Source: Dehalococcoidia bacterium
GTDB taxonomy: Bacteria > Chloroflexota > Dehalococcoidia > CAUJGQ01
Direction: 5' to 3'
DNA: 64,000 nt
NCBI GenBank assembly: GCA_035310145.1
Contig: DATGEL010000003.1
Span: forward strand, 4,779-68,778
Shown: positions 3,960 to 49,998 of the stretch, piece by piece
How positions within the stretch are numbered: position 1 is the stretch's first letter
How the letters are laid out: each line of letters opens with the position of its first letter
Position numbers and translations under genes: made by a program
Notes under the pieces: generated by a model
Seen by the model: only the letters and a program-made list of their open reading frames with translations
Databases searched by the model: none
Told to the model about the DNA's origin: nothing

Positions 3960-5258
3960 TCACGGGATGGGTAACTGCCTGAGCCGTTCGATGCCGGCCG
4001 CTGCCCTGCCGGCGATGGCCGCCGCGCCGGCCCGCGCCTGGTCCATTCCCGCTGCCGCGTGATCTCGGGCGCCTTGGGCTGCGGCGTGGGCAGCGGCCCG
4101 GACGATGGCCGCGCCGATCCGCGCGAAGCCGGCGGCGCCGCGCGTGCTCCCAGACGGCTCCGCGGCTGCATCAAGGCCGCTGCTCAGGACGAAGTTTTGG
4201 ATCGCGCTCTGGCCGGGCCGTAGCGTAACGCTGGCAGCAGCCACGCGATCGCCTTCATCGCCCGCTGCGAAATGCAGCGCCATGCCTGCCGGCACATCGT
4301 CGACGCGGTAGGCGCCGTCCACGTCCGTCACCACGCTGCCGCCGCCGTACCAGACGCGCACGCCCGTGGCCGGACTGCCAGCCTCGTTGCGCACCACACC
4401 GACCAGACTGCCGGCCGCGGTCTCTGGCGCGATCGTGACGGCGGCCAGGGCGTCGCCGAGCAGTGCGTAGCCGCGATCGTTGGGGTGGATATTGATGATG
4501 CACTTGCATGACATCCACGTGGTTTGCTGCTCGACGCCCGCGAATGCCGCGTACGGCTCGGCCACACGCAGGCCATGCTCGGCGGCGATGTCCAGAATCG
4601 TCTGGTTGAGCCGGCCCATGGCCCACAGGTCAGAGTCGGCATCGCCGAAAGGCTCGTAGTAGGCGAGCAACACCAGGTCGGCGGTCGAGTCCGCCGCCCG
4701 CAATTCGCTCTCCAGCTTGGAGACGATCGTTTCGAGGTTGGTTCGAAGCGTCGCCAGCGCCGCCAGCTTCGCCGCGGTCGAATGGCCGGAGCCATGCACG
4801 TTCAGCGCGTCGTTTCCGCCGATGTCCAGGGTGACCGGGCCGATGCCGGCGCCGTGGTTGCGGATCTCCGCCACGGCGCGGGCCAGTTGCGAGCGGCTGT
4901 CCGGGTTGCTGAAATAGTCGCCGATGAAGGAGTTGGTCGTCTCGCCGCTGACGCCGAGATCGCGCACGCTCACGGCATGGCCCGCGAAACCTTCGAGCCG
5001 GCGGGCGAAGTCGGCGACATAGCCGGAGCGGCCGGCGCAGCCGACCGGGCAGCGCGACGAGCCAACGCCGGTGGCCAGAGAATCGCCCAGGGCAAGATAC
5101 TCGTTGCCGGTCGCGAATACGCGGGCGTCGGAAGGCGTGTAGCCGCGGACTGGCGCGACCACAAACAGCGACGTGAAGACGGCGACGACGCCAAGCGTTG
5201 AAGGCAGCGCCCAACGGCGCAGCGGTGGCCGTTGCGCCCCCGCGGTGTCTGCGGTCAT
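3960..5258 (-). CDS. Secreted SGNH/GDSL hydrolase with a C-terminal carboxypeptidase-regulatory-like (CarboxypepD_reg) beta-sandwich domain.
   Basis: N-terminal signal/TM segment; GDSL block ALGDSLATG; GGNDA block; HPNDRGY (the DxxH block); C-terminal RVWYGGGSVVTDVDGAYRVDDVPAG. Confidence 0.75.
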   Translation of the reverse strand: MTADTAGAQRPPLRRWALPSTLGVVAVFTSLFVVAPVRGYTPSDARVFATGNEYLALGDSLATGVGSSRCPVGCAGRSGYVADFARRLEGFAGHAVSVRDLGVSGETTNSFIGDYFSNPDSRSQLARAVAEIRNHGAGIGPVTLDIGGNDALNVHGSGHSTAAKLAALATLRTNLETIVSKLESELRAADSTADLVLLAYYEPFGDADSDLWAMGRLNQTILDIAAEHGLRVAEPYAAFAGVEQQTTWMSCKCIINIHPNDRGYALLGDALAAVTIAPETAAGSLVGVVRNEAGSPATGVRVWYGGGSVVTDVDGAYRVDDVPAGMALHFAAGDEGDRVAAASVTLRPGQSAIQNFVLSSGLDAAAEPSGSTRGAAGFARIGAAIVRAAAHAAAQGARDHAAAGMDQARAGAAAIAGRAAAGIERLRQLPIP

Positions 5259-5375
5259 CGTGGCCCGACTCCGAGGCGTGGGACTGAACGAGCGGCTGCC
5301 CGCTCGGGCACCCAGTGTAGCGGGAAGGGGGCTACCGCACGAAGCCGGCGCCCGGCGCGGCGGGCATGCGCCGCA

Positions 5376-5732
5376 TCAGCCGAGCAACATGTACGCGCCC
5401 GCCGCAGCCCAGGAGGCGACGCTGATCAGCGTGCCCCACAGCCCGAGCGTGGTCCAGCGCAGGCCGTGCCAGCGGTCGTCCGGCGGATCCCACGGCTCGA
5501 GGGCGCTGAGCAGCGCAAAGAGGCCCGGCACCAGCAGGACGATGTCCAGAGCCACCAGCACCGGGCCGCCGCCCGGCCCTTCGCCGTTGAGGAAGACGCT
5601 GGCGACCAGGCCCACGCCGAGGATGACGCCGAACAGGCACTGCACCGAGCCGACGAACAGGAAGACCGCGCGTGCCGCCACGCGCAGCCAGCGCACCCAG
5701 CGAAGTCGATACTGCCGTGCCGCCGAGTTCAC
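5376..5732 (-). CDS. Small hypothetical membrane protein (about 118 aa, 3 predicted TM helices) upstream of and co-directional with the SGNH hydrolase.
   Basis: GTG start at 5732 with GGAGG 6 nt upstream. Hydrophobic helices (AVFLFVGSVQCLFGVILGVGLVASVFL, VLVALDIVLLVPGLFALLSAL, LGLWGTLISVASWAAAGAYMLLG). The upstream part of the 347-aa ORF is Arg-rich and was rejected. Confidence 0.4.
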   Translation of the reverse strand: MNSAARQYRLRWVRWLRVAARAVFLFVGSVQCLFGVILGVGLVASVFLNGEGPGGGPVLVALDIVLLVPGLFALLSALEPWDPPDDRWHGLRWTTLGLWGTLISVASWAAAGAYMLLG

Positions 5733-5843
5733 GCGGCCCTCCGTTCGCCCGCGACCCGGCTTCGCCGCGACGGCGGACGATACTATTCTAGCGTCAGTCG
5801 CGATCCGGTTGCTGAAGATCGCGCGGGACGGATTGTACGCAGG

Positions 5844-6578
5844 ATGCCGCCGAGCGCTATCCTCTTCGACTTCTACGGCACGCTGGCCTCCGGCCAAAAC
5901 CTCGGCAACGTGCGTGAGTTGGAACTGTTCGCCCAGTTCGGCTACCGGGTCGACGCCGAGCAACTCCGCCGCAGCCGCGCGGCAGTGCAGGCGCGGCTCG
6001 ACGGGCCGGAGCCGATCGACCACCGCGAGTTCAGCGTGAGCCGTGAGCGGTACAACGAGTTTCAGCGCCGCCATTATGCCGTCGGGCTGCGCGAATGCGG
6101 CGTCGATCCGGACCATCCGGGACTGTTCGAGCGGCTTTGCGAACTGTGGGACGACCCGTCGCCGATCTACCTCTTCGACGACGCCCTGCCCGTGCTGGCC
6201 GAGCTGCGCGGTGCCGGCTACCGCCTCGGCCTCGTCTCGAACTGGTCGTGGGGACTGGAGACGATCCTGCAGCGTACCGGCCTGGCGCCGCTGCTGGAGT
6301 GCGCCGTGGTTTCGGCCCGCGCCGGCTACCGCAAGCCGCATCCGGCGATCTACCGCCTCGCGCTCGACGCGCTCGGGCTGGAGGCCGACGAAGTCCTGTT
6401 CGTGGGCGACAACCCGCACGCCGATGTCGACGGCCCGCTTGCGGTGGGTATGGCGCCGGTGCAGATCGACCGCGTGGGCGAAGCGCTTCGCCGGCCCGGA
6501 ATCCCATGCATCTCTGAGCTTGCCGGACTGTTCAAGCTGCTGCCCGAGGGCCGCGCCGCGTCACGGCATTTTCCGTAG
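5844..6578 (+). CDS. HAD-superfamily hydrolase, L-2-haloacid-dehalogenase-like (motif I is DxYGTL).
   Basis: Motif I ILFDFYGTL, motif II GLVSNWS, motif IV VGDNPHADVDG. The start was moved to the ATG at 5844; the 5' 600 nt of the ORF is Arg-rich antisense junk. Confidence 0.75.
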   Translation: MPPSAILFDFYGTLASGQNLGNVRELELFAQFGYRVDAEQLRRSRAAVQARLDGPEPIDHREFSVSRERYNEFQRRHYAVGLRECGVDPDHPGLFERLCELWDDPSPIYLFDDALPVLAELRGAGYRLGLVSNWSWGLETILQRTGLAPLLECAVVSARAGYRKPHPAIYRLALDALGLEADEVLFVGDNPHADVDGPLAVGMAPVQIDRVGEALRRPGIPCISELAGLFKLLPEGRAASRHFP

Positions 6579-6606
6579 CGGCTGCACCGCAACTTCAGTT
6601 CGATGA

Positions 6607-6645
6607 CCCCTCGCCTTCCCTCCTGGAGTGGGAGGAGGCGAGGGG
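6607..6645. repeat. GC-rich palindromic hairpin repeat (family member, reverse orientation). Possible bidirectional terminator between convergent genes.
   Basis: cccctcgccttccctcc / tggagtg / ggaggaggcgagggg, an imperfect inverted repeat of about 16 bp, flanked by gcgatc. Confidence 0.5.
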
Positions 6646-6784
6646 CGATCGCTGGCTGGATGTTCCGGGGCCGCGGCCGGTTAGCAGGCAAGGGCAGGAG
6701 CAGGTGGCGCCCCCTTCGCGCCGCGATGCGCGAGCAGCGGCGCTCGACCACCTCGACGTCGCCCGAAGCGCTTCAAACAGGATC

Positions 6785-6812
6785 GCCCCTCTCCCAATCC
6801 TGGGAGAGGGGC
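6785..6812. repeat. GC-rich palindromic hairpin repeat (family member).
   Basis: gcccctctccca / atcc / tgggagaggggc, a perfect 12-bp stem, preceded by gatcgc. Confidence 0.55.
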
Positions 6813-6860
6813 AAGTGACGACGGACAAGTGACATGAAATGCGGGCCGAACGGCGCCGGG

Positions 6861-7370
6861 TTACACGCCCACCGGCACCTTCGTGGGGCGGGTGATCGGC
6901 GTGGCGCGGGTCTGCACCGAGTCGTCGAGGTCGCGCTCGTCCAACGCGCGCACCCAGCAGGCGAACTCCAGCAGGATGCCGTCCGGGTCGCGGAAGTAAA
7001 TCGACTTGCAGAACTCGTGATCAAGCGCCCACATCGACTCGACGCCGGCCTCTTCCAGCCGATCCCAGGCGGCCCAGAGCTCGTCTTCGTTCTCGACGGT
7101 GAAGGCCACGTGGTGCATTGAGGCGTGCGCGCTGTGGAACTGCGTGTAGCCGGCGTTGCCGACGCCGGGCTGCGCCTCGGGCGCCTCGGGGAACCAGAAG
7201 AAGGCGAGCTGGTTGCCGCCGCCCATGTCGAAGAAGTAGTGCTTCGCGCCGCCGCGGATATTCAGCTTCGCGGTGAGCTTCATGCCCATCACGTCGGTGT
7301 AGAACCGCACCGTGCGGTCCATATCGCTGCAAACCAGCGCGAGGTGGTGAACGCCCTGTGCCCGGATCAT
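6861..7370 (-). CDS. VOC family protein (glyoxalase / bleomycin resistance / extradiol dioxygenase fold).
   Basis: MIRAQGVHHLALVCSDMDRTVRFYTDVMGM...HVAFTV pattern, with an AAGGAG RBS. Confidence 0.8.
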   Translation of the reverse strand: MIRAQGVHHLALVCSDMDRTVRFYTDVMGMKLTAKLNIRGGAKHYFFDMGGGNQLAFFWFPEAPEAQPGVGNAGYTQFHSAHASMHHVAFTVENEDELWAAWDRLEEAGVESMWALDHEFCKSIYFRDPDGILLEFACWVRALDERDLDDSVQTRATPITRPTKVPVGV

Positions 7371-7520
7371 GCTCGTCTCCTTTCGGGGTGCCGGCTACGA
7401 ACTGCTTCTTACAGTAGCACCGATATGCCCAGCTTTCCACAGACCCGCGCGAAGATCGCGATTCCGCTGGGCCGGATCGCTTGCACATCTCAGGCGTCCG
7501 CCGAGCGACGGAAGGTATTC

Positions 7521-8798
7521 TCAGGCGGGGAAGCGCTGCTTCAGCCATGCCGCGAGGATGCCCGCGAACTCCGCGCGCGGGTTTGTGCCCGGTGCGTCCG
7601 GCAGCGGGCGCAGGTAGTGGTCGGCGCCGCTGAGGTCGTGGCGCACCTTGTCCGGCGCCGCGATCGCGTTCCACATCGAATCGGCGTTGGCGGGCAGGAT
7701 ATCGCTGTCGCCATCGGCCGCTGTGAACAGTGTCGGCACGGTGATGCTGCGCGCGTTCTCGACGAAGTTCGCCCGCGACGACGTGCCGCTCCAGGTCGAA
7801 AGCCAGGCGCGGGGCGAGAGCACGCGCGAGATGTTGCTGGAGAAGTAGTTGCCGAACTCCGGCCGCGCCGTCGGGCCGCCGAAGATCGTGCCGATCGGCC
7901 GGCGATTCGGGTCGATGCTCAGGTCGAGATAGGCCGGATTCGCCACGGTGCGGTAGATCAGCATCAGCCGGTGCGGAATCGCGCGGCGGCGGGCGCGAAT
8001 CAGCGCGTACGGCGCCATGCCGCTGCCGGCCGCCGCGCCCGCTCCCTCCCGTTCCTCGGCCAGGTGGGCGCGGGCGATCGCATCGAGCCGCAGGTGGCGC
8101 GCCCGCTGCGCCTCTCGGTAGCTTGCCAGCCAACCGCGGGCGTACGTCGCCGTGCCCGTTCCCGGGTCGTAGCCGTTCTCCGGGTTGAACATGTCGAGCG
8201 CGGGGTCGCAGGAGAGCGGGTCGGCCTCGTCCGTGACCGAGGGGTCGATGCTTTGCAGCATGAACAGCCCCTCGCCCGAGTGCGCGGCCAGCGCCACGAA
8301 GCCGTCGCCTGCAGGCAGGTCGCCGGTCAGGTCCACGTGGCTGCCGCCGGGCGTGTCCTGCTCGCGTTCCGCCGGCGGCAGCACCGCCTGCGCCTGGTAG
8401 AAGGCATAGAGCGAGGCACCGCCGCTGTTGCCGAGCAGCACGATGTTCTGAAAGCCGCGGGCGCGCAGGTGACGTAACCCAGCGGCGATGTCCAGCACCA
8501 GCCGCTCATGAATCGCTTCGGTGTCGTTGTTGAGGTAGCGGCTGTTGTGCCCCCAGGCCGCGTAGCCGGCCGCCACCAGGTAGGGCACGGCGTAGTGGCG
8601 GGCGAAGTCGCCGCGGGGGTGCATCAGGCAGCACACGGTGCGCGGCAGCCGGCCGGCGGGATAGTAGAGCACGCCGGCGCTCTCGGCGCTGTCGTCGGCG
8701 AAGAGCCGCTGCGGCTCGATCGCCGTGTTATCGGGGAGCGCATCGTAAAACGGCCCTCCGCGGAACTCGGCGGTGTGGGAAACCACCTGCTGTGTCAT
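7521..8798 (-). CDS. Alpha/beta-hydrolase fold protein.
   Basis: GNSGGA nucleophile elbow (GxSxG). The start was set at ATG 8798 (MTQQVVSH), downstream of an Arg-rich extension. Confidence 0.65.
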   Translation of the reverse strand: MTQQVVSHTAEFRGGPFYDALPDNTAIEPQRLFADDSAESAGVLYYPAGRLPRTVCCLMHPRGDFARHYAVPYLVAAGYAAWGHNSRYLNNDTEAIHERLVLDIAAGLRHLRARGFQNIVLLGNSGGASLYAFYQAQAVLPPAEREQDTPGGSHVDLTGDLPAGDGFVALAAHSGEGLFMLQSIDPSVTDEADPLSCDPALDMFNPENGYDPGTGTATYARGWLASYREAQRARHLRLDAIARAHLAEEREGAGAAAGSGMAPYALIRARRRAIPHRLMLIYRTVANPAYLDLSIDPNRRPIGTIFGGPTARPEFGNYFSSNISRVLSPRAWLSTWSGTSSRANFVENARSITVPTLFTAADGDSDILPANADSMWNAIAAPDKVRHDLSGADHYLRPLPDAPGTNPRAEFAGILAAWLKQRFPA

Positions 8799-41463: not shown

Positions 41464-42390
41464 ATGCGCTTCGGCATCGTGCTCCCGCACTTTCGCGCTG
41501 TGGCCGGCGCCGCCGCCATCCGCGACGTGGCGCAGGCCGCCGATTCGCTGGGCTTCGATTCGATCTGGATCACCGATCGCGCCGCCATTCCGCGCGGCGA
41601 GGTGAACCGCCGCTTCGGTCCGGCCTTCTACGATCCGCTGGTCACGCTCGGTTACGTCGCGGCCTGCACCACGCGCGTGCGGCTGGGCGCCACGGTGTTC
41701 GTGCTGCCGTTTCGTCATCCGGTGCTGATGGCCCGCGCCATCGCTTCGCTCGACCAGCTCTGCGGCGGACGGCTGGACGTCGGCGTGGGCACGGGCTGGA
41801 TGCGCGAGGAGTTCGACGCGATCGGCGTGCCGTTTGAGCAGCGCGGCGCCCTCACCGACGAATATCTTGACGCGATGATCGCCCTCTGGAGTGCGCCCGT
41901 CGCCTCGTTCGCCGGACCGACGGTGCGCTTCGAGAATCTGCACGCTGAGCCGCTGCCCGTGCAGCAGCCGCACCCGCCGATCTGGGTGGGCGGCCGCACG
42001 CCGCCCGCCTACCGGCGCGCGATCAAATACGGCCAGGTGTGGCACGCCTCGCCCGTCGGCCTCTCCGAGCTGTTGCCCGCCATCGCGGGGCTGCGCGAGA
42101 CGGCGAAGCGGCTTGGCCGCGACCCGGAGACTATCGCCCTGACGACGCGGGCGCCGCTGTACTTCGAACTGACGTCGCATCGGTTCGGGGAAAGTGAGCC
42201 GCCGGAGATGCCGATCGGCACGCCGGACGCGGTGCTCGCCACGCTGCGCCGCTACCAGGCAGCCGGCTTCTCCGAAATCGTCTTCGACACGTTCTTCGCC
42301 GGCTTTCCCGAGCTGGAGGGCGCCACGCCGGACGGGATTCTGCAGACGATGTCGCAGTTCACGCGGGTGGTGCGGCCCGCCTTCCCCTGA
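41464..42390 (+). CDS. Luciferase-like monooxygenase (LLM) class flavin/F420-dependent oxidoreductase.
   Basis: MRFGIVLP..., FDSIWITD, and VGVGTGWMREEF, typical of LLM TIM-barrel enzymes. Confidence 0.7.
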   Translation: MRFGIVLPHFRAVAGAAAIRDVAQAADSLGFDSIWITDRAAIPRGEVNRRFGPAFYDPLVTLGYVAACTTRVRLGATVFVLPFRHPVLMARAIASLDQLCGGRLDVGVGTGWMREEFDAIGVPFEQRGALTDEYLDAMIALWSAPVASFAGPTVRFENLHAEPLPVQQPHPPIWVGGRTPPAYRRAIKYGQVWHASPVGLSELLPAIAGLRETAKRLGRDPETIALTTRAPLYFELTSHRFGESEPPEMPIGTPDAVLATLRRYQAAGFSEIVFDTFFAGFPELEGATPDGILQTMSQFTRVVRPAFP

Positions 42391-42505
42391 TCGCAACGGG
42401 CCAGGCGGCCGATGCTATAAGCAGACGAGCTCATCGCCGGTGCGATGCAGTTCCCGGCGTTGGCGTACGATAGGTAAGCACGCGCCGCAGCGAGGGAGAC
42501 CAGGG

Positions 42506-43321
42506 ATGACCACTGACACAAACAGCTCCGAGATGCCGATGGCGTTTCCGCCGGTTCAGCCCGAGCGCTACGACTGGGAAGCGGTCGTCGACGAGCTCAA
42601 CCGCCTGCTGCGGCTGCGCACCACGCCGATCGGCATGAAACTGTTCGAGACCGTGGCCGAGATGGAGGCGATTCCGCGCATTCGGCGGCCTAAGGCGATC
42701 CATACGACCGATCAGATCGTGGCGCAGGCTGCCCGGCTCGGTTGGACCGTCGGCATCACCAACGACGACCTCGTAGGCGCGCAGTGCGGCGCCGTGATCG
42801 GCCTGCATCCGCAGGACGCGGACTGGCTCTCCGGCAGGCGCATGGCCGGCGTCTGGTTCGACACGCTGGAGAACTCGGCGGCGCACCAGGCGGCGATGGA
42901 CGTGGTGCCCTACGGCCGCTTCACGGCGCTGGCCGTCTCGCCGCTGACCTCGGGCCGGCTCGATCCGCCGGACGTTTGCCTGATCTACGGCACGCCCGGG
43001 CAGATGATCATCCTGATCAACGGCCTGCAGTGGACGGGCTACCGCAAGTTCGAGTGGGGCGTGGTGGGCGAGTCGGCCTGCGCCGACTCGTGGGGCCGGG
43101 CGCTGAAGACGGGCGAGCCGAGCCTCTCCATCCCCTGCTACGCCGAGCGGCGTTACGGCGGCGTGCTGGACGACGAGCTGCTGATGGCGATTCCGCCGCG
43201 CTTCCTGCCCGGCGCGATCGAGGGGATGAAGCGCATTGCCAGGAACGGTCTGCGCTACCCGATCCCGCAGTACGGCATCCAGAGCGACGTCCGCGCCGGC
43301 CTGGCCTACAGCTACGGGTGA
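42506..43321 (+). CDS. DUF169 (COG2043) family protein.
   Basis: PIGMKLF, GTPGQMIILINGLQW, ESACADSWGRAL, PCYAERRY, and DDELLMAIPPRFLPGAIEGMKRIARNGLRYP, all consistent with archaeal DUF169 members. GGGAG RBS. Confidence 0.7.
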   Translation: MTTDTNSSEMPMAFPPVQPERYDWEAVVDELNRLLRLRTTPIGMKLFETVAEMEAIPRIRRPKAIHTTDQIVAQAARLGWTVGITNDDLVGAQCGAVIGLHPQDADWLSGRRMAGVWFDTLENSAAHQAAMDVVPYGRFTALAVSPLTSGRLDPPDVCLIYGTPGQMIILINGLQWTGYRKFEWGVVGESACADSWGRALKTGEPSLSIPCYAERRYGGVLDDELLMAIPPRFLPGAIEGMKRIARNGLRYPIPQYGIQSDVRAGLAYSYG

Positions 43322-43450: not shown

Positions 43451-44533
43451 ATGCGCGTCCTGCTGCACCTGCTGCCGCTGATCAGCGTCTTCGTGCTCGC
43501 CTGTGGCGGTGGGTCGCACCACGCCACACACGCGCCGGCGAGCAATGCGAGCTTCGTGGCTCCACAGGCGCTAGCCGCCACGCCGCGCGTCGCGCCGCCC
43601 ACGACAGGCACACCGGCGCCCGCCGCGCTCGTGATGCCCGCCGGACTGCAGGACGTGGGCCAGTTCGTGGTGAGCGCGAGCGGCCCGGTACAGGCCGAGA
43701 ACCGCGCGGCCACGATGGTGTTGCACCTCAGGCGAGGCGACGAGATTCACTTTCCGCCGAGCATGACGTGGGGAACGCTCCCCAACGTCGGGCTGTCCGC
43801 ACCGCACTGGATTGGCGCGGCCGTTCGGCTGTCCGGCCACCTCCTCTACCTCACCGGTGAAACGGGCTTTGGGCCTGGCGATGCTGCATTCGACCGCGCG
43901 GACGACCGCACCTTTCGCGTGACTATGCCCGGCGAAGTGCTCTTCTGGGCGAATGAAGACGGGGTGCGAAACGAAGGCGGCACGCTGGCGGACTACCCGA
44001 TCGCCGTCGATGCCGCCGGCCATCTCTGGCTCGGGCCTCTGCCCGTGCCGCCGAACAGCGTAGTGGACTACAACACCGGCGTTGGGCTCGATCTCGGCGG
44101 CATGAAGCGGGTCGGCTGGCTGCCGTCCGCGGGGAACACCGGCGCCTTCTTCTTCACGACTTGCGGACCGGCGACCTGCGGCTATACCGACCGGCTCGCG
44201 ACCACGCTGACCTCACCCATCACAGGCACGCTCACCTGCCGCTCCGGCACGAACTTTGATCTCGTCGGCGACGGCTATCGGCTGCTGTTTCGAGATACGG
44301 CGACGCTGATCCGGCCGCGAGACAGCACGCCGACTGCAACGCCGGCCGCTGCCTGCGGCCAGAGCTTCGCCATTCAAGCGGGTGAGCCGGTTGACGACAC
44401 GGGAGCCCACTACTTCGTGACCGCCGTTGCAAGCGACGGTGAGCCGCTCTCGGTCGTCGTCGCCTACGACGGCACGCTGTATGTGGGGCATCTGACGGCG
44501 CCGCCGCTTGAAGGGCCGAGTCGCGCCCTTTGA
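43451..44533 (+). CDS. Hypothetical lipoprotein.
   Basis: Signal peptide with lipobox VFVLACGGG; GAGAGG RBS. Confidence 0.55.
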   Translation: MRVLLHLLPLISVFVLACGGGSHHATHAPASNASFVAPQALAATPRVAPPTTGTPAPAALVMPAGLQDVGQFVVSASGPVQAENRAATMVLHLRRGDEIHFPPSMTWGTLPNVGLSAPHWIGAAVRLSGHLLYLTGETGFGPGDAAFDRADDRTFRVTMPGEVLFWANEDGVRNEGGTLADYPIAVDAAGHLWLGPLPVPPNSVVDYNTGVGLDLGGMKRVGWLPSAGNTGAFFFTTCGPATCGYTDRLATTLTSPITGTLTCRSGTNFDLVGDGYRLLFRDTATLIRPRDSTPTATPAAACGQSFAIQAGEPVDDTGAHYFVTAVASDGEPLSVVVAYDGTLYVGHLTAPPLEGPSRAL

Positions 44534-44619
44534 GCCGGCGTGGCGGCCGACGCGCGTGCGCGATTCGGCGTATGATAAGCCACATTCAGGCGCGGTGTTC
44601 AGCGCAAAGGAGCCTCCGC

Positions 44620-45144
44620 ATGGCGCGCGTGGTTGGCCTCGGGCACGTCGGCATTTACGTCCAGGATCTCGAAAAGATGGTGGCGTTCTACCGCGACCTG
44701 CTCGGCATGCAGGTGACGAAGCAGAACTGGGAGGCCGGCGCCGTCTTCCTCAGCTCGGATCCCGCGCGCAGCGACCACGAGATCGCGCTGATGCGCGGCC
44801 GGCCCAGCGCCGAGGATCCGCACCTGATCAATCAGATCTCCATGCGCGTGGTCAGCCTCGCGGATCTGCGCGAGATGTACCGCGCGATCAAGGCCGGCGG
44901 CTACAGGATCCACCGCGTGGTCAGCCACGCCAGCGCGATCGGCTGCTACTTCGCCGACCCGGAGAACAACACGACCGAAGTCTTCTGGGTGACGAGCCGG
45001 CCCTGCTGGGTGATGGCCGGCGATCCGATCGATCTGGAGCAGCCGGACGAGGTGATCATGGCGCAGGTCGATCGCCAGTGGGAGCGGCTGCGCGACGTGC
45101 CCGTCGGCGGTGTGCCGCTGCCCGCGGCGGCGCCGGCGGGTTAA
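44620..45144 (+). CDS. VOC family protein (glyoxalase/dioxygenase fold).
   Basis: MARVVGLGHVGIYVQDLEKMVAFYRDLLGMQV. AAAGGAG RBS. Confidence 0.65.
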   Translation: MARVVGLGHVGIYVQDLEKMVAFYRDLLGMQVTKQNWEAGAVFLSSDPARSDHEIALMRGRPSAEDPHLINQISMRVVSLADLREMYRAIKAGGYRIHRVVSHASAIGCYFADPENNTTEVFWVTSRPCWVMAGDPIDLEQPDEVIMAQVDRQWERLRDVPVGGVPLPAAAPAG

Positions 45145-45159
45145 CCAGGTTGCCCACCG

Positions 45160-45783
45160 CTACCGGCCCAGGTCGCCGCAGATGCCGCCCGCCTGGATCA
45201 GCAGGTCTTCCAGTTCCGCCTGCCAGGCGAGGGCGGCGCGGCGCTTCTCGCGCGTGTCCGCTAGCTCCTCGTAGATCGCCTGGCCCCACTTCAGGTGCTC
45301 CTCCTCCTCCAGCAGGATGTGGCGGAGGATACGCACCGTGGGCGCGTCGCAAACCTGGTCCGTCACCAGCGCGTGATGGCGGTAGTAGACGCAGAGCTGC
45401 GTCTTCAGCACGCGGTAGAGGCCGACGAGCCGCAGCAGCGGCTCGGTCTGGAGCTGCATCGTCTCGACGAACTTCACGAACTGCTCGTTGGGCGGCTCCA
45501 TCTTGTAGCTGCTGCGCAGCGTAGGGGGCGCCTCGATGTCGGCGCCCTCGGTGACGCGCAGCTCGGGCAGGCGTTGCCCCAGCCAGAACCAGTGCACCGA
45601 GTCCTGGTAGCAGTGCTCGCCCAGGGCAAATTTGGCCTTGATCTGCGGCATGGTTGAGGCCCAGGCGCCCGCCGCCGTCATGCAGGCGTGCTCGGCGAAG
45701 CGGTAATGCAACAGCCGGCGGCCGTTCTCGTCCACCGAGAAGGCGCCGCCGACGGTGCGCGGGTCGATGCAAAGCTCGGGCAT
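45160..45783 (-). CDS. Hypothetical helical protein with a possible ExxH metal-binding motif, last gene of the diiron/ferredoxin cluster.
   Basis: LLEEEEHLKWG and FAEHACM. It starts 7 nt after the ferredoxin stop. Confidence 0.45.
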   Translation of the reverse strand: MPELCIDPRTVGGAFSVDENGRRLLHYRFAEHACMTAAGAWASTMPQIKAKFALGEHCYQDSVHWFWLGQRLPELRVTEGADIEAPPTLRSSYKMEPPNEQFVKFVETMQLQTEPLLRLVGLYRVLKTQLCVYYRHHALVTDQVCDAPTVRILRHILLEEEEHLKWGQAIYEELADTREKRRAALAWQAELEDLLIQAGGICGDLGR

Positions 45784-45790
45784 GCGGTCT

Positions 45791-46132
45791 TCACCTCGAA
45801 GGGCCGGCGTCTGCCGGCCGCGCCCGTACCCCTGCCGCCGCCGCTTCCGCCCGGAGCTTGCGTTGCTGCGCGGTTTGGCGCTGTCTTCGGGCCCAGGCGC
45901 GGGCGTGCGCTTTGGCCGCCTCCAGGTCGATCGGATCGTGCCGGTACTCCTGGTCGTAGCTGATCACGTCCACCGGGCAGACGCGGGCGCAGATGCCGCA
46001 GTCGATGCAACCCTCAGGCCTGATCACGTGCGTGCGCTGGCGCGTCAGGAAGAACGCGATCGTTTCCGTTGGGCAGGCGCGGCGGCACCAGCCGCAGTTG
46101 ATGCAGCCTTCCAGGGCAATGCGGTAGGTCAT
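45791..46132 (-). CDS. 2[4Fe-4S] ferredoxin.
   Basis: CINCGWCRRACP and CIDCGICARVCP (two CxxCxxCxxxCP motifs), with a basic C-terminal tail. Confidence 0.8.
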   Translation of the reverse strand: MTYRIALEGCINCGWCRRACPTETIAFFLTRQRTHVIRPEGCIDCGICARVCPVDVISYDQEYRHDPIDLEAAKAHARAWARRQRQTAQQRKLRAEAAAAGVRARPADAGPSR

Positions 46133-46147
46133 ACCTGGTCCTGAATG

Positions 46148-46945
46148 CTAGCCCAGCGCCGTGCTGGCGCGGTCGGCTTCTTCGGCGAAGAAGGCGCGGA
46201 TCTCGTCCTTCTGTTCACCGCTGAGCTGGGCACGGATCTGCTCAAATTTCGCGTGGGCGCGCAGGGCGCGGCCCTCCTGCGCCGGGTCCGCCGCGCATAG
46301 CTCCTTCACGAAGTAGTCGCCAATCGCCGTGTGCGTGACTTCGTCGGCCCAGTTGTAATCGTAGACGTGCTGCATCAGCGCATCGCCGATTCGGCCGCCC
46401 AGCTCGCTGGTGGCCTGGAACAGCGCCAGCGCCTCGCCCTCGAGCGAGACATTGGTCGTTTCCAGGCTGATTAGCGGGTCCTGCGGGTTGTCGCCCAGCG
46501 CCAGTTCGAGCATCTGCCGCACCTGGCCGCCGCCACCGCCCAACGTGTCCGGATACTCGTCGATCTTTCCGCCGTACGAGTCGAGCAGGCCCAGGGCGAG
46601 CTGCGCGTGGCGCACCTCGTCCCAGGTCTGGCGGGCCATCGCCATGATCAGCTCGGGCGGCACGTTCCAGTCCTGCCACTCAGCCACTTTGCGGCTGAAG
46701 GCGTCCACTCCGGCGAACTCGGCGCTGGCGATGCCGCAGACCATCGCCTTGCGGAACTCGACGTTCGCTGGGTCTGCCTGCACCATGTCGCGCAGCAAGC
46801 CGATCTCGTAGTTGGCGGCGTCGCCCAGCTTCTCGGCCAACGCCGCGCGCTCGGCGGCGGGGAGCAGCATCGCCGGACGGTAGGGAGGCTCGCGTTGCGG
46901 CATCGACTGCTGCAGTTGCTCGCTCAAGCGGGATCGCGTCACCAT
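46148..46945 (-). CDS. Ferritin-like diiron-carboxylate domain protein.
   Basis: Four-helix pattern E...ExxH...E...ExxH: AEFAGVD, WDEVRHAQL, LEGEAL, ADEVTHTAIG. Confidence 0.6.
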   Translation of the reverse strand: MVTRSRLSEQLQQSMPQREPPYRPAMLLPAAERAALAEKLGDAANYEIGLLRDMVQADPANVEFRKAMVCGIASAEFAGVDAFSRKVAEWQDWNVPPELIMAMARQTWDEVRHAQLALGLLDSYGGKIDEYPDTLGGGGGQVRQMLELALGDNPQDPLISLETTNVSLEGEALALFQATSELGGRIGDALMQHVYDYNWADEVTHTAIGDYFVKELCAADPAQEGRALRAHAKFEQIRAQLSGEQKDEIRAFFAEEADRASTALG

Positions 46946-47086
46946 CGCGCTCCTCCGTGCCTGCCGGCCGCCTGTCGCCTGCGTGGGCGGCGCGACGTAG
47001 AATCAACGCGCATAACCGCGGAAACGCCCGGCCGGGCGATGCCTCTACGATACGCGCAAAAAGCAGTTGTGTAAAGGGCAAATAGT

Positions 47087-47548
47087 ATGGCGCATGATCG
47101 TGCGGCGCTCGTCGGGGCGGCGCGGCTCTACGGTGAGGCGGTGGCAATTGTGGACCCGCTGCGGGCGCGCCTCTGGGCGGAGTGCGGCCTGACCGTGCCC
47201 CAGTTGCGACTGATGTTCATGCTGCGCGAGGAGCCCGGCAGCACCGGCAGCCTGCTTGCTGAACGGTTCGGCGTCAATCCCTCGACGATCACGGGTCACG
47301 TCGAGAAGCTGCTGCAGCGCGAGCTCGTCTGGCGCGAAGAAGACGAGCAGGACCGGCGCGTACAGCACAACTACCTGACGGAGCTGGGCGCCGACCTAAC
47401 CGGCCGGCTCGAGCGTGCCGCCGGCCATTACGTGATCGAGATCCTCGGCCGGCTTACGGAGTCGCAACTGGCCCGGCTCACGGAAGCGCTCGGCGATCTC
47501 GTTATGGCAGCCAGAGCCGGGCCGGCGGCTGCAACCCATTCGGGCTAG
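47087..47548 (+). CDS. MarR-family transcriptional regulator, divergent from the diiron/ferredoxin cluster.
   Basis: LTVPQLRLMFMLREEPGSTGSLLAERFGVNPSTITGHVEKLLQRELVWREEDEQDRR winged-HTH. AT-rich upstream region. Confidence 0.8.
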   Translation: MAHDRAALVGAARLYGEAVAIVDPLRARLWAECGLTVPQLRLMFMLREEPGSTGSLLAERFGVNPSTITGHVEKLLQRELVWREEDEQDRRVQHNYLTELGADLTGRLERAAGHYVIEILGRLTESQLARLTEALGDLVMAARAGPAAATHSG

Positions 47549-47662
47549 CGTGATAGTCTTTTGTCACCACGTCCTTGTAATCTCTTAACGACTCACGCGC
47601 CCGCCGATGATAGTACTCAGTCAGCGGATCACCGTACACACCGCGCGAGGAGCCGATCGCTG

Positions 47663-48208
47663 GTGACAGTTTCGCAGGCCGCCACGCGCCGCCGTGAGCC
47701 CTCGGTCTCCTGGCAGGCGATCCGCTTCGGCATGATTGGGCTCAGCGGCACGGTAATCTCCTTTGTGCTCTTCACCCTGCTCAATCAGCAGCTTGGCTGG
47801 CGTGTGATCGTCGCCAATCCGATCGCCTACGGTGCCGGCATCGTCAACAACTACTTCTGGAACCGCATCTGGAACTACCGGCACGTCGAGCGGCGCAGCG
47901 TGCTGCATCAGGGTGGGCAGTTCGCGCTGATCAGCCTCGGCGCCCTCGTGCTGCACACGGGCATTCTCGGCTTCGCCACCCGCTGGGGCGTAGGCATCAA
48001 GCGAGATTTCTTCGTCTACTGCGCGGTCTACGCCGGCGCCACCGCCGTCTCATATGCGTGGAACTTCACGTTCAATCACCACATTACTTTCCGCGAACGG
48101 GCGCCGAAGACGCTGCAGGCGCTGGCCCACCCGCATGTGCCGCACCCGCATCTGCCGCACCTGCACCCAGAGAAGGAAGGCACGACGCTCGCGGGAGACG
48201 GCGATTAG
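47663..48208 (+). CDS. GtrA-family membrane protein.
   Basis: RFGMIGLSGTVISFVLFTLL...ANPIAYGAGIVNNYFWNRIWNYR. GTG start with a GAGGAG RBS. Confidence 0.7.
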   Translation: MTVSQAATRRREPSVSWQAIRFGMIGLSGTVISFVLFTLLNQQLGWRVIVANPIAYGAGIVNNYFWNRIWNYRHVERRSVLHQGGQFALISLGALVLHTGILGFATRWGVGIKRDFFVYCAVYAGATAVSYAWNFTFNHHITFRERAPKTLQALAHPHVPHPHLPHLHPEKEGTTLAGDGD

Positions 48209-49998
48209 CCCCCAGGTTGCTGACGTGCCCGCCGCGCCCGCTCCGAGCGGCCCTGCAGGCGCGAGGCGGCGCTGTATGAGCGCAGGATCGCGGAACGTTC
48301 CAGCACACCCACGTACTGTTCCCCGTGGCGGCGCACCACCGGCACGATCGGCATGAACGAGGCGGCGCCGGCCAGCGCCAGCGCAACCTCGTGCAACGTT
48401 TCGTCAGGGTCGAGCAGCGGCACGTCGCGCAGCGCCAGGTCACGTACACGGCGGTCCTCGAACTGCGTTTCGCCGGCGGCGTCCGCCCGTTCCAGCGCGG
48501 CCGCCACCTGGTCGAGGCTGAGCACGCCCTCGAAACGCCCGTCGCGATCGACCACCGGAAAAACCGTGCGGCCGCTGGTGCGCGCCTGCGCCATCGCCTG
48601 GCGCAGCGTGCGATCGGGCGCGATCGTCGGCCAGTCGCGGATCAGGACTTCGCGCACGCGGATGCGCGCCAGCGGGCTGAGGCGGATCAGCTCGCGGTCG
48701 ATGCCACGCAGGCGCAGCGGCAAGGTGTAGATCGACTCCGCGTGCAGCCGGCGGGCCAGCATCACACTTGCCGCCACCGCGGCGACGATCTGCGGCAGCA
48801 GGTTGAAATCGCGCGTGAACTCGCAGACCAGCAGCACCGCGGTGAGCGGCGCGTTGACGACGGCCGCCACCACCGTGCCCATGCCGACCAGCGTGTAAGC
48901 CGGCTCCGGGCTGGCGCCGCTCCAGACGCGGCCGACGATCGCGCCGAAGGCGCCGCCCAGCGTCGCGCCGATGAAGAGCGAGGGCGTGAACACGCCGCCC
49001 GTGGCGCCGGATCCCAGCGTGAAGCTGGTGGCCGCCAGCTTGGCAAGCGGCAGGGCAAGCAACAGGCCGGTTTCCAGGTGACCGTTCAGCGCCTGCTCGA
49101 TGCCGGTGTCACCGCTGCCGAGCACGCGCGGCAGAAACAGGCCGATGGCGCCCACCGCGAGCCCGCCGAGCGCCGGACCGAGCCAGAAGGGAATACGCGA
49201 CTGCTCGATGCGGCTGCCCAGCGAATGCACGGCCAGGAAGAGCGCCACGCCCAGCGGGGCCGCAATCAGCCCCAGCAGCAAGTCGAGCGGCACGTCCTGC
49301 CAGGGCGCCGGCGGCAGCGCGGGCGCCGTGATCACGTGCTCGACGCTGAACTGCTGCGCCACGGCAGTAGCGGCCACCGCGGCCAGCGCCAGCAGCGAGA
49401 AACGCCTCGGCTCCAGCTCCTCCAGCAGCACTTCGCTGGCGAAGGCGGCGCCGGTGAGCGGCGCATGGTACATGCCCGCGAGGCCGGCCCCGGCGCCGCA
49501 GGCCAGCAACGTGCGCAGCCGCGGCGCCGGCAGACGCAGGAGCTGGCCGAGCCCGGAGGAGAGCGCCGCGCCGATCTGGATGATCGGCCCCTCCGGCCCG
49601 GCCGAACCGCCGGAGCCGATCGTCACGGTCGAGCCGATCGCCGTGTGCACGCCGGCGATCCAGGGCAGGCGGCTCCCTCTCGTTTCCACGGCCACGATCA
49701 CCTCGGAGACGCCGTGGCCCGCCGGTGCGTGCAGCACGAAGCGCAGATAGAGGCCCACCAGCAGCCCGCCCGCCGCCGGCAGCAGCGCGACCTAGGGCCG
49801 GTCGAGCAGCGTGGCGGCGAGATCTACACCCTTAAACGAGCCGAAGAAGAGCTGGTTGGCGCCGTGCAGCAGCTCGCGGAAGCCGACCGCGACCAGCCCC
49901 ATGCCCGCGCCCGTGGCGACGACGAGCAGCAGAAAGCCGGCCTGCTCAGCCAACCCCGCCGATTCGACGCGCTCGCGCAGCCCCAGCCAGCGGCTCAT
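48205..49998 (-). pseudogene. ClC-family chloride channel/transporter with C-terminal CBS domains, interrupted by an in-frame TAG at 49792..49794.
   Basis: ORFs 49792..50127 and 48205..49758 are in the same frame, separated by a single amber codon (...TLLDRP*VALLPAAGG...). The pore motif GSGGSAGPEGP, GMYHAPLTG and C-terminal CBS pair are intact. Confidence 0.6.

Follow-up and report, generated by a model that had tools for sequence, protein, structure and literature searches.

The DNA analyzed here is a 64,000-nucleotide (nt) stretch, the window, of contig DATGEL010000003.1 from a Dehalococcoidia bacterium (assembly GCA_035310145.1). It carries three tightly packed minus-strand genes, here termed A, B and C, headed by a divergently transcribed marR gene. 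As judged from their sequences, A and C are the halves of one split two-domain DUF455 enzyme, working as one unit, and B, situated between them, encodes a ferredoxin with two [4Fe-4S] clusters. We propose, at a probability of about one half, that the cassette specifies a MarR-repressed, ferredoxin-fed, heteromeric A/C diiron oxidase or oxygenase acting on a small molecule.

A compact three-gene cassette

Gene A (46148..46945, minus strand) encodes a 265-residue ferritin-fold diiron protein with a divergent DUF455 domain, the putative catalytic subunit. Gene B (45791..46132, minus strand) encodes the 113-residue 2×[4Fe-4S] ferredoxin, the putative electron donor, and gene C (45160..45783, minus strand) a 207-residue partner subunit that also has the ferritin fold and is a homologue of the N-terminal domain in two-domain DUF455 proteins. 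The marR gene (47087..47548, plus strand) encodes a 153-residue MarR-family regulator and diverges from A-B-C. These open reading frames (ORFs) and that of a gtrA gene, discussed further below, occur in the ORF list exactly where an earlier note on this DNA had placed them, as do the intergenic gaps of 15 nt (A-B) and 7 nt (B-C). Since both gaps contain a Shine-Dalgarno-like sequence (AGGA or GAGGTG), A, B and C are probably translated from a single mRNA. Long spurious ORFs are frequent at about 70% G+C, and the window has a G+C content of 69.8% (genome, ~70%). Database searches returned 423 homologues of A and 536 of C at 55–95% identity, with top values of 92–95%; given these hundreds of homologues, the ORFs of the cassette can be taken as genuine genes rather than chance ORFs in spite of the base composition.

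A and C correspond to the two domains of fused DUF455 proteins

A profile of C, run against 1.84 billion cluster representatives, retrieved 689 relatives, many of which are 400–550 residues long. In all eight long fused proteins tested, a C-like N-terminal domain is followed by a DUF455 domain that scores 38–108 bits (gathering score, 34.3 bits). These fused proteins, about 410–550 residues in length and labeled "DUF455 family protein" in their sources, come from metagenome-assembled genomes (MAGs) of Chloroflexota, Bacteroidota, Thermomicrobiales and Syntrophorhabdaceae. In hhalign comparisons, C aligned with the fused N-terminal domain at a probability of 100% (E-value 2e-53), and the A alignment matched the C-terminal domains of the same fused proteins, those with DUF455 scores of 38–108 bits, at 99.4% (E-value 3.4e-21) over 160 columns that cover all ligand helices. 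One Chloroflexota locus (L077) encodes a fusion of a C-like and a DUF455 domain at 5986..7380 (plus strand). Because A and C are homologous to the halves of fused DUF455 proteins, this gene-fusion evidence identifies them, at the level of sequence, as the two parts of one split enzyme that would work as a unit and might form a physical complex. The earlier note had described two helical proteins of families it could not name; the families can now be given, A being a divergent DUF455 protein and C its N-terminal partner domain, and the two are not independent of each other.

Compared with the fused proteins, the window encodes the same parts in a different arrangement. The fused N-terminal domain resembles C, and the C-terminal DUF455 domain resembles A and has identical diiron ligands. 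In the window, however, the domains reside on separate genes, in reversed order (A first, C last), with the ferredoxin gene between them, whereas the fused genes have neither a ferredoxin nor a MarR gene adjoining. Fused genes (L077, L082, L083 and L085) tend toward carbohydrate contexts, with sugar ABC permeases/transporters, alpha-amylase, PfkB kinase and DeoC aldolase genes nearby, along with an AP_endonuc_2 TIM barrel and one or two FAD_oxidored-type genes; the L077 fusion is flanked by genes at 4480..5793 and 7402..8673. No conserved partner gene of the fused relatives emerged from these four contexts. The downstream genes of L085 (431 residues) and L083 (450 residues) are not homologous to one another, nor is that of L085 homologous to the L077 flanking gene.

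A retains a complete diiron ligand set

A and C both have the four-helix-bundle ferritin fold. In A, the E/ExxH/E/ExxH pattern that the earlier note had recognized (E76, E110xxH113, E169 and E202xxH205, with spacings of 34 and 33 residues) is invariant among 37 orthologues, and the same ligands are likewise invariant in the DUF455 domain of the fused proteins. Against the Pfam DUF455 model (PF04305; gathering score, 34.3 bits), window A reaches 23.5 bits (E-value 4.7e-5) and so remains under the threshold. Matches to this model at E ≤ 0.01 were obtained for 36 of the 37 orthologues, three of which (P0035, P0110 and P0117) narrowly exceed the gathering score (34.6–35.2 bits). We accordingly classify A, from its sequence relationships, as a divergent DUF455 protein.

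A second family resemblance bears on the chemistry. Nine of the 37 A orthologues match PF02332 (Phenol_Hydrox, the methane/phenol hydroxylase family), at profile positions 105–229 of 230 only, i.e. in its C-terminal half, and some orthologues (P0110 and P0117) exceed the Pfam threshold for PF02332 as well as for DUF455. These double matches make us lean toward an oxygenase. In the Pfam scan, window A itself matched none of PF02332, PF05138, PF00210, the rubrerythrin families or a rubredoxin-like domain, and it did not score as a member of the MiaE family model. Sequence searches of PDB chains with A, C, the A profile and a fused relative gave no meaningful match, the hits of single proteins to ubiquitin and MetN being noise.

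The ligand motif of A is also common to ferritins, and A and C could accordingly be pictured as a ferritin-like iron store from which the ferredoxin releases iron, in the manner of bacterioferritin and Bfd. We consider iron storage or mobilization highly improbable. With 265 residues, extra helices and membership in a family of two-domain proteins of 410–550 residues, A is a poor fit to the ~160-residue subunit of a 24-mer cage, and PF00210 is not matched by the window proteins. Moreover, Bfd belongs to the [2Fe-2S] proteins rather than to the dicluster ferredoxins, and the regulator at this locus is a MarR, not an iron regulator.

C is a putative partner subunit with its own set of conserved polar residues

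In C, residues E31, D61xxH64, K127, H137 and E159–E161 are invariant and H163 is nearly so; the EEEH motif seen by the earlier note is thus present, as part of a nearly invariant EEEEH run (E159–E162 plus H163). The canonical ligand positions of C are occupied by E31, D61xxH64 and E160xxH163, and the invariant K127 takes the place of the helix-3 glutamate, 33 residues before E160. In the wider C-like family, E31, H64, H137, D/E159 and E160 are each retained in about 55–90% of the sequences, and H163 is variable. Among the fused proteins, K127 is a lysine in 82%, and the EEEEH run is not conserved. C may therefore have either a non-canonical site or a degenerate one that a salt bridge closes.

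With respect to known families, C scores 14.5 bits against DUF455, under the gathering score of 34.3 bits; six of 34 C orthologues match PF05138, at E-values of 0.008 or worse, and window C does not match PF00210. Direct comparison of the A and C profiles detected no similarity between them, and a paralogous relationship of A and C, as our model has it, would have the shared fold as its sole basis.

A bolder view of C would make the A/C pair with its private dicluster ferredoxin a previously unrecognized class, a ferredoxin-driven heterodimeric diiron oxygenase in which C carries a second, non-canonical site. Under that view, the C site (E31, D/H61, H64, K127, H137 and E159/E160) would be a lysine-containing metal or radical site, or else the site of both docking and substrate binding, and the reaction would be new to ferritin-fold enzymes and provide the first DUF455 function. 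We regard this as rather unlikely, and in what follows we retain the proposal of an A/C diiron oxidase or oxygenase with A as the catalytic subunit.

B is a dedicated dicluster ferredoxin

B contains two CxxCxxCxxxCP motifs (C10/13/16/20 and C42/45/48/52), the eight cysteines of which are invariant among 73 orthologues. It scores 47.2 bits against PF00037 (Fer4; cut-off, 21.1 bits) and 45.8 bits against PF13237 (Fer4_10), again above the cut-off, in full agreement with the 2[4Fe-4S] ferredoxin named in the earlier note; no named NCBIfam ferredoxin subfamily reached its cut-off for B. In the related loci, B is always found between A and C. Its C-terminal tail of about 55 residues (approximately 60–113) has a net positive charge in each of the 73 orthologues (+1 to +11). 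It is a matter of speculation whether this basic tail and the acidic EEEE run of C serve in electrostatic docking.

The cassette is a conserved module of restricted distribution

Scanning the GTDB species representatives (one genome per species) with the C alignment yielded 76 relatives, all of them in MAGs, which belong to Chloroflexota or Dehalococcoidia, including Tepidiformaceae, with one binned as Planctomycetota. As determined by tblastn, the order A-ferredoxin-C on the same strand is found in 70 of the 70 loci in which the contig reaches upstream of C; of the others, four lie at contig ends, one is the L077 fusion and one is L078 (Seohaeicola), a weak match with 39% identity over 59 residues. 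The synteny holds down to orthologue identities of 39% for A and 60% for C. Thus, the compact diiron cluster with a dedicated ferredoxin described by the earlier note is a conserved unit, rather than a housekeeping ferritin gene that happens to lie beside a ferredoxin gene.

Two MAGs contain two copies each (L048 and L062 in BQF170218_bin_250; L074 and L076 in WY5.bin150). L048 and L062 are both complete A-ferredoxin-C cassettes, whose C proteins are 72% and 66% identical to window C. Such double cassettes suggest paralogue diversification, as seen in accessory or catabolic enzymes. The cassette is confined to part of the Chloroflexota, its flanking genes vary between loci, and the plasmid collection contained no homologue of A or C. 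Owing to the restricted spread, the double cassettes and the varying flanks, the cassette looks like a self-contained accessory module and not like a ubiquitous housekeeping ferritin.

Compared with the window proteins, orthologues have median identities of 58% (A), 56% (B) and 74% (C), making C the most constrained of the three. The strong conservation of C would be accounted for if the enzyme modified a macromolecule or a cofactor, for instance by MiaE-like tRNA hydroxylation or in a step of cofactor synthesis, as a lineage-specific, near-housekeeping function. A distribution that is patchy, with duplications and under the control of a repressor, speaks against such a role, which we hold to be very unlikely.

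In a clustering of the neighborhoods of 79 loci, together with seven annotated contexts, no gene family was consistently linked apart from MarR (25 loci) and a PNPOx-like gene. The latter is found near the cassette in five genome loci (L024, L025, L037, L051 and L057) as well as in L001 (5520..5915) and L002 (5504..5920). In one subclade, this PNPOx_N-type gene (split-barrel, flavin/F420-binding) is located directly upstream of A, co-directional with it, instead of MarR; P0110 and P0117, the A orthologues noted above for exceeding both Pfam thresholds, are similar to the A proteins found in this subclade. Genes for short-chain dehydrogenase/reductase (SDR) proteins, acyl-CoA dehydrogenases and CoA-transferases also recur near cassettes, at variable distance and on either strand, which we tentatively attribute to the large size of these paralogue families.

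A conserved candidate MarR operator overlaps the promoter-like site of the cassette

The regulator scores 50 bits against PF01047 (cut-off, 24.6 bits). A divergent marR orthologue with 45–78% identity is located upstream of A in the above 25 loci, about 40% of those that could be scored. The MarR control envisaged by the earlier note is supported by linkage and by a candidate operator, and would apply to one subclade rather than to the cassette in general.

The spacer between marR and A measures 141 nt. It had been described as an AT-rich region of 140 bp; its overall G+C content is 64.5%, and only the 47 bp adjoining marR (47040..47086; 44.7% G+C) are AT-rich. A promoter-like site for A-B-C is found here on the minus strand (47047..47075), consisting of TTTACA (47075..47070), a 17-nt spacer and TATCGT (47052..47047), the sole sigma-70-like site within 44900..48400. 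The architecture TTTACA-17-TATAGT, pointing to A, is kept in 26 other MarR-linked loci. When the marR-A spacers were compared, a block AATATTTGCCCTTTACAAAAG-N-AGTATAGTCGA stood out as strongly conserved; it contains this promoter-like site.

The candidate MarR operator (47064..47086; ACTATTTGCCCTTTACACAACTG on the operon strand) overlaps the −35 element and ends 1 nt before the marR ATG. It contains an imperfect inverted repeat of the form (A)[T/G]TTG-N-CAA[A/C], the arms of which co-vary by clade, with AGTTG...CAACT in the closest relatives of the window and ATTTG...CAAAA in the others. Its 13-mer ATTTGCCCTTTAC covers the −35 element and occurs exactly once in the window, at 47071..47083, where 0.13 matches with up to two mismatches are expected by chance. 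Of the 25 loci that bear MarR, 23 contain the 13-mer without mismatch; L004 and L007 differ from it at one position and L079 at three, and no locus lacking MarR has it. Since the motif is conserved among genomes whose proteins are only ~55% identical, and since it strictly co-occurs with marR, we suggest that this element is probably the MarR operator. Only 1 nt separates the inverted repeat from the marR start codon; the element thus also lies in or next to the marR leader, a position that suggests autoregulation.

The earlier note had recommended a search for a palindromic operator in 46946..47086. A simple inverted-repeat search of the window spacer returned only GC-rich palindromes (47007..47056) that are not conserved elsewhere, and it was the cross-species comparison that brought out the conserved imperfect repeat. 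Loci of the MarR clade additionally share a TTCAAC element (GTTGAA on the marR strand), 18 nt from TATACT and ~25–30 nt downstream of the operon −10 (in L056, for example, around 4625..4640), for which the window has no clear equivalent. TTCAAC and TATACT may represent the marR promoter, with a −10 element that overlaps the operon −10 on the opposite strand.

As to the signal, the regulator has no conserved cysteine, its only one (C33) being replaced by aspartate or glycine in orthologues, and thiol-based sensing as in OhrR was rejected on this ground. For the same reason, a small molecule is the more likely ligand, rather than thiol oxidation. This bears on a further explanation, in which the diiron site serves as a ferredoxin-dependent peroxidase in oxidative-stress protection, reducing H2O2, organic peroxides, O2 or NO in the manner of rubrerythrin, with MarR as the stress switch. 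It is kept alive by the occurrence of fused relatives in a MAG of the Syntrophorhabdaceae, which we take to be an anaerobic lineage. A MarR without a conserved cysteine is contrary to thiol-based peroxide sensing, a rubredoxin-like domain and rubrerythrin Pfam matches are lacking, and the two-domain, α/β-like architecture together with the partial matches to phenol/methane hydroxylases favors oxidation of a substrate. On balance, peroxidase function appears unlikely.

A model for the A-B-C system

In our model, A would be the catalytic subunit with a complete diiron-carboxylate site. C would be its four-helix-bundle paralogue, a partner comparable to the non-catalytic subunits of PaaA/PaaC or of the multicomponent monooxygenases, and may retain a degenerate or non-canonical metal site. 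B, with its two [4Fe-4S] clusters, would deliver single electrons to the diiron center, and the reduced center would react with O2 (or, less likely, with peroxide) to oxidize or hydroxylate a small molecule. MarR bound to the operator over the −35 element would block transcription of the operon, and probably of its own gene as well, until released by its ligand.

Several observations weigh against this model. The DUF455 score of window A is under the gathering threshold, and members of the family are known from sequence only. A purely structural partner would not usually be the more conserved subunit, as C is relative to A (74% versus 58%); this suggests a role for C beyond the one assigned to it in the model. 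The surroundings give no clue to the substrate, only the MarR or PNPOx-like gene being conserved beside the cassette, and no ferredoxin reductase is encoded near it. Fused relatives lack an adjacent ferredoxin gene, and B might thus serve something other than turnover; their presence in a Syntrophorhabdaceae MAG means that O2 is perhaps not the obligate oxidant of the family. The earlier note had thought of an aromatic oxidation system in particular. The neighborhoods examined revealed no conserved reductase, effector protein or ring-cleavage pathway, and the aromatic part of that proposal is unsupported.

The system had also been called uncharacterized, and the literature searched indeed contains no functional study of DUF455 (COG2833, PF04305) or of the cassette, most "DUF455" matches referring to DUF4553 and similar terms; likewise, the structure libraries searched hold no solved structure of either. 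According to the literature search, DUF455 is also present in fungi, protists and plants. The cassette is a lead to its function in that it offers a natural split into separately expressible subunits, together with a cognate electron donor, a component that in vitro reconstitutions of diiron enzymes often lack. It also includes its own MarR and a candidate operator; the ligand of this MarR should be either the substrate or a metabolite related to it. A function for DUF455 would add one reaction to ferritin-fold diiron chemistry and is unlikely to overturn current understanding; what the cassette does is make this function experimentally approachable, without being a new kind of system.

Genes surrounding the cassette

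The gtrA gene (47561..48208, plus strand; 215 residues) starts 12 nt after marR and encodes a GtrA-family membrane protein (PF04138, 74 bits, above the cut-off). Its place after marR, which the earlier note had pointed out, is correct; linkage is limited to the closest relatives, gtrA adjoining marR only in L004 and L007 and being displaced in L079, and GtrA is not part of the system. The 3′ end of gtrA overlaps by 4 nt that of a convergent gene (48205..49758, minus strand) for a ClC-type chloride channel with two CBS domains, which is unrelated to the cassette.

On the other side, three plus-strand ORFs (42194..43321, 43451..44533 and 44530..45144) include a DUF169 gene, the real start of which is probably downstream of the first GTG, an adjoining 360-residue ORF with a lipoprotein-like signal (…VLACGG…) and no Pfam match, and a glyoxalase/VOC gene that is convergent with C. 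The closest genome match to the window is an uncultured Chloroflexi MAG (L003; C 94% identical), which has all three of these neighbors; DUF169 is also present in L079. This neighborhood represents local synteny, not conserved linkage. The 64-kb window contains no tRNA genes and no Rfam families at the gathering threshold, and the Rfam scan found no known riboswitch in the ~100-nt leader.

Comparison with known systems

The rubrerythrins and the bacterioferritin/Bfd pair share with the cassette the ligand motif, the four-helix bundle and an Fe-S partner, and differ from it in size, two-domain architecture, type of Fe-S partner and regulator. Direct supply by ferredoxin is familiar from acyl-ACP desaturases and from aldehyde-deformylating oxygenase. 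The desaturases and the cyanobacterial deformylating oxygenase, however, are single-subunit homodimers or monomers, their ferredoxins are of the [2Fe-2S] type and encoded elsewhere, and they have no significant sequence similarity to the window proteins.

In its putative two-subunit architecture, the A/C pair resembles PaaA/PaaC and the α/β subunits of multicomponent monooxygenases. Unlike the phenylacetyl-CoA epoxidase PaaABCDE, it has no PaaB, PaaD or PaaE nearby, and the window proteins are under the PF05138 cut-off. Compared with multicomponent monooxygenases, the window and related loci lack an effector of the MmoB/DmpM type, a flavin/[2Fe-2S] reductase and a Rieske ferredoxin, and the window proteins do not reach the PF02332 cut-off; unlike in both systems, the carrier is a 2×[4Fe-4S] ferredoxin. 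The cassette would work like the Paa and multicomponent monooxygenase systems without being a member of either. Ferritin-fold diiron enzymes that have an Fe-S electron carrier and are controlled by a MarR repressor are a familiar kind of system; new here are the split form of the two-domain DUF455 protein, the private dicluster ferredoxin and the defined candidate operator.

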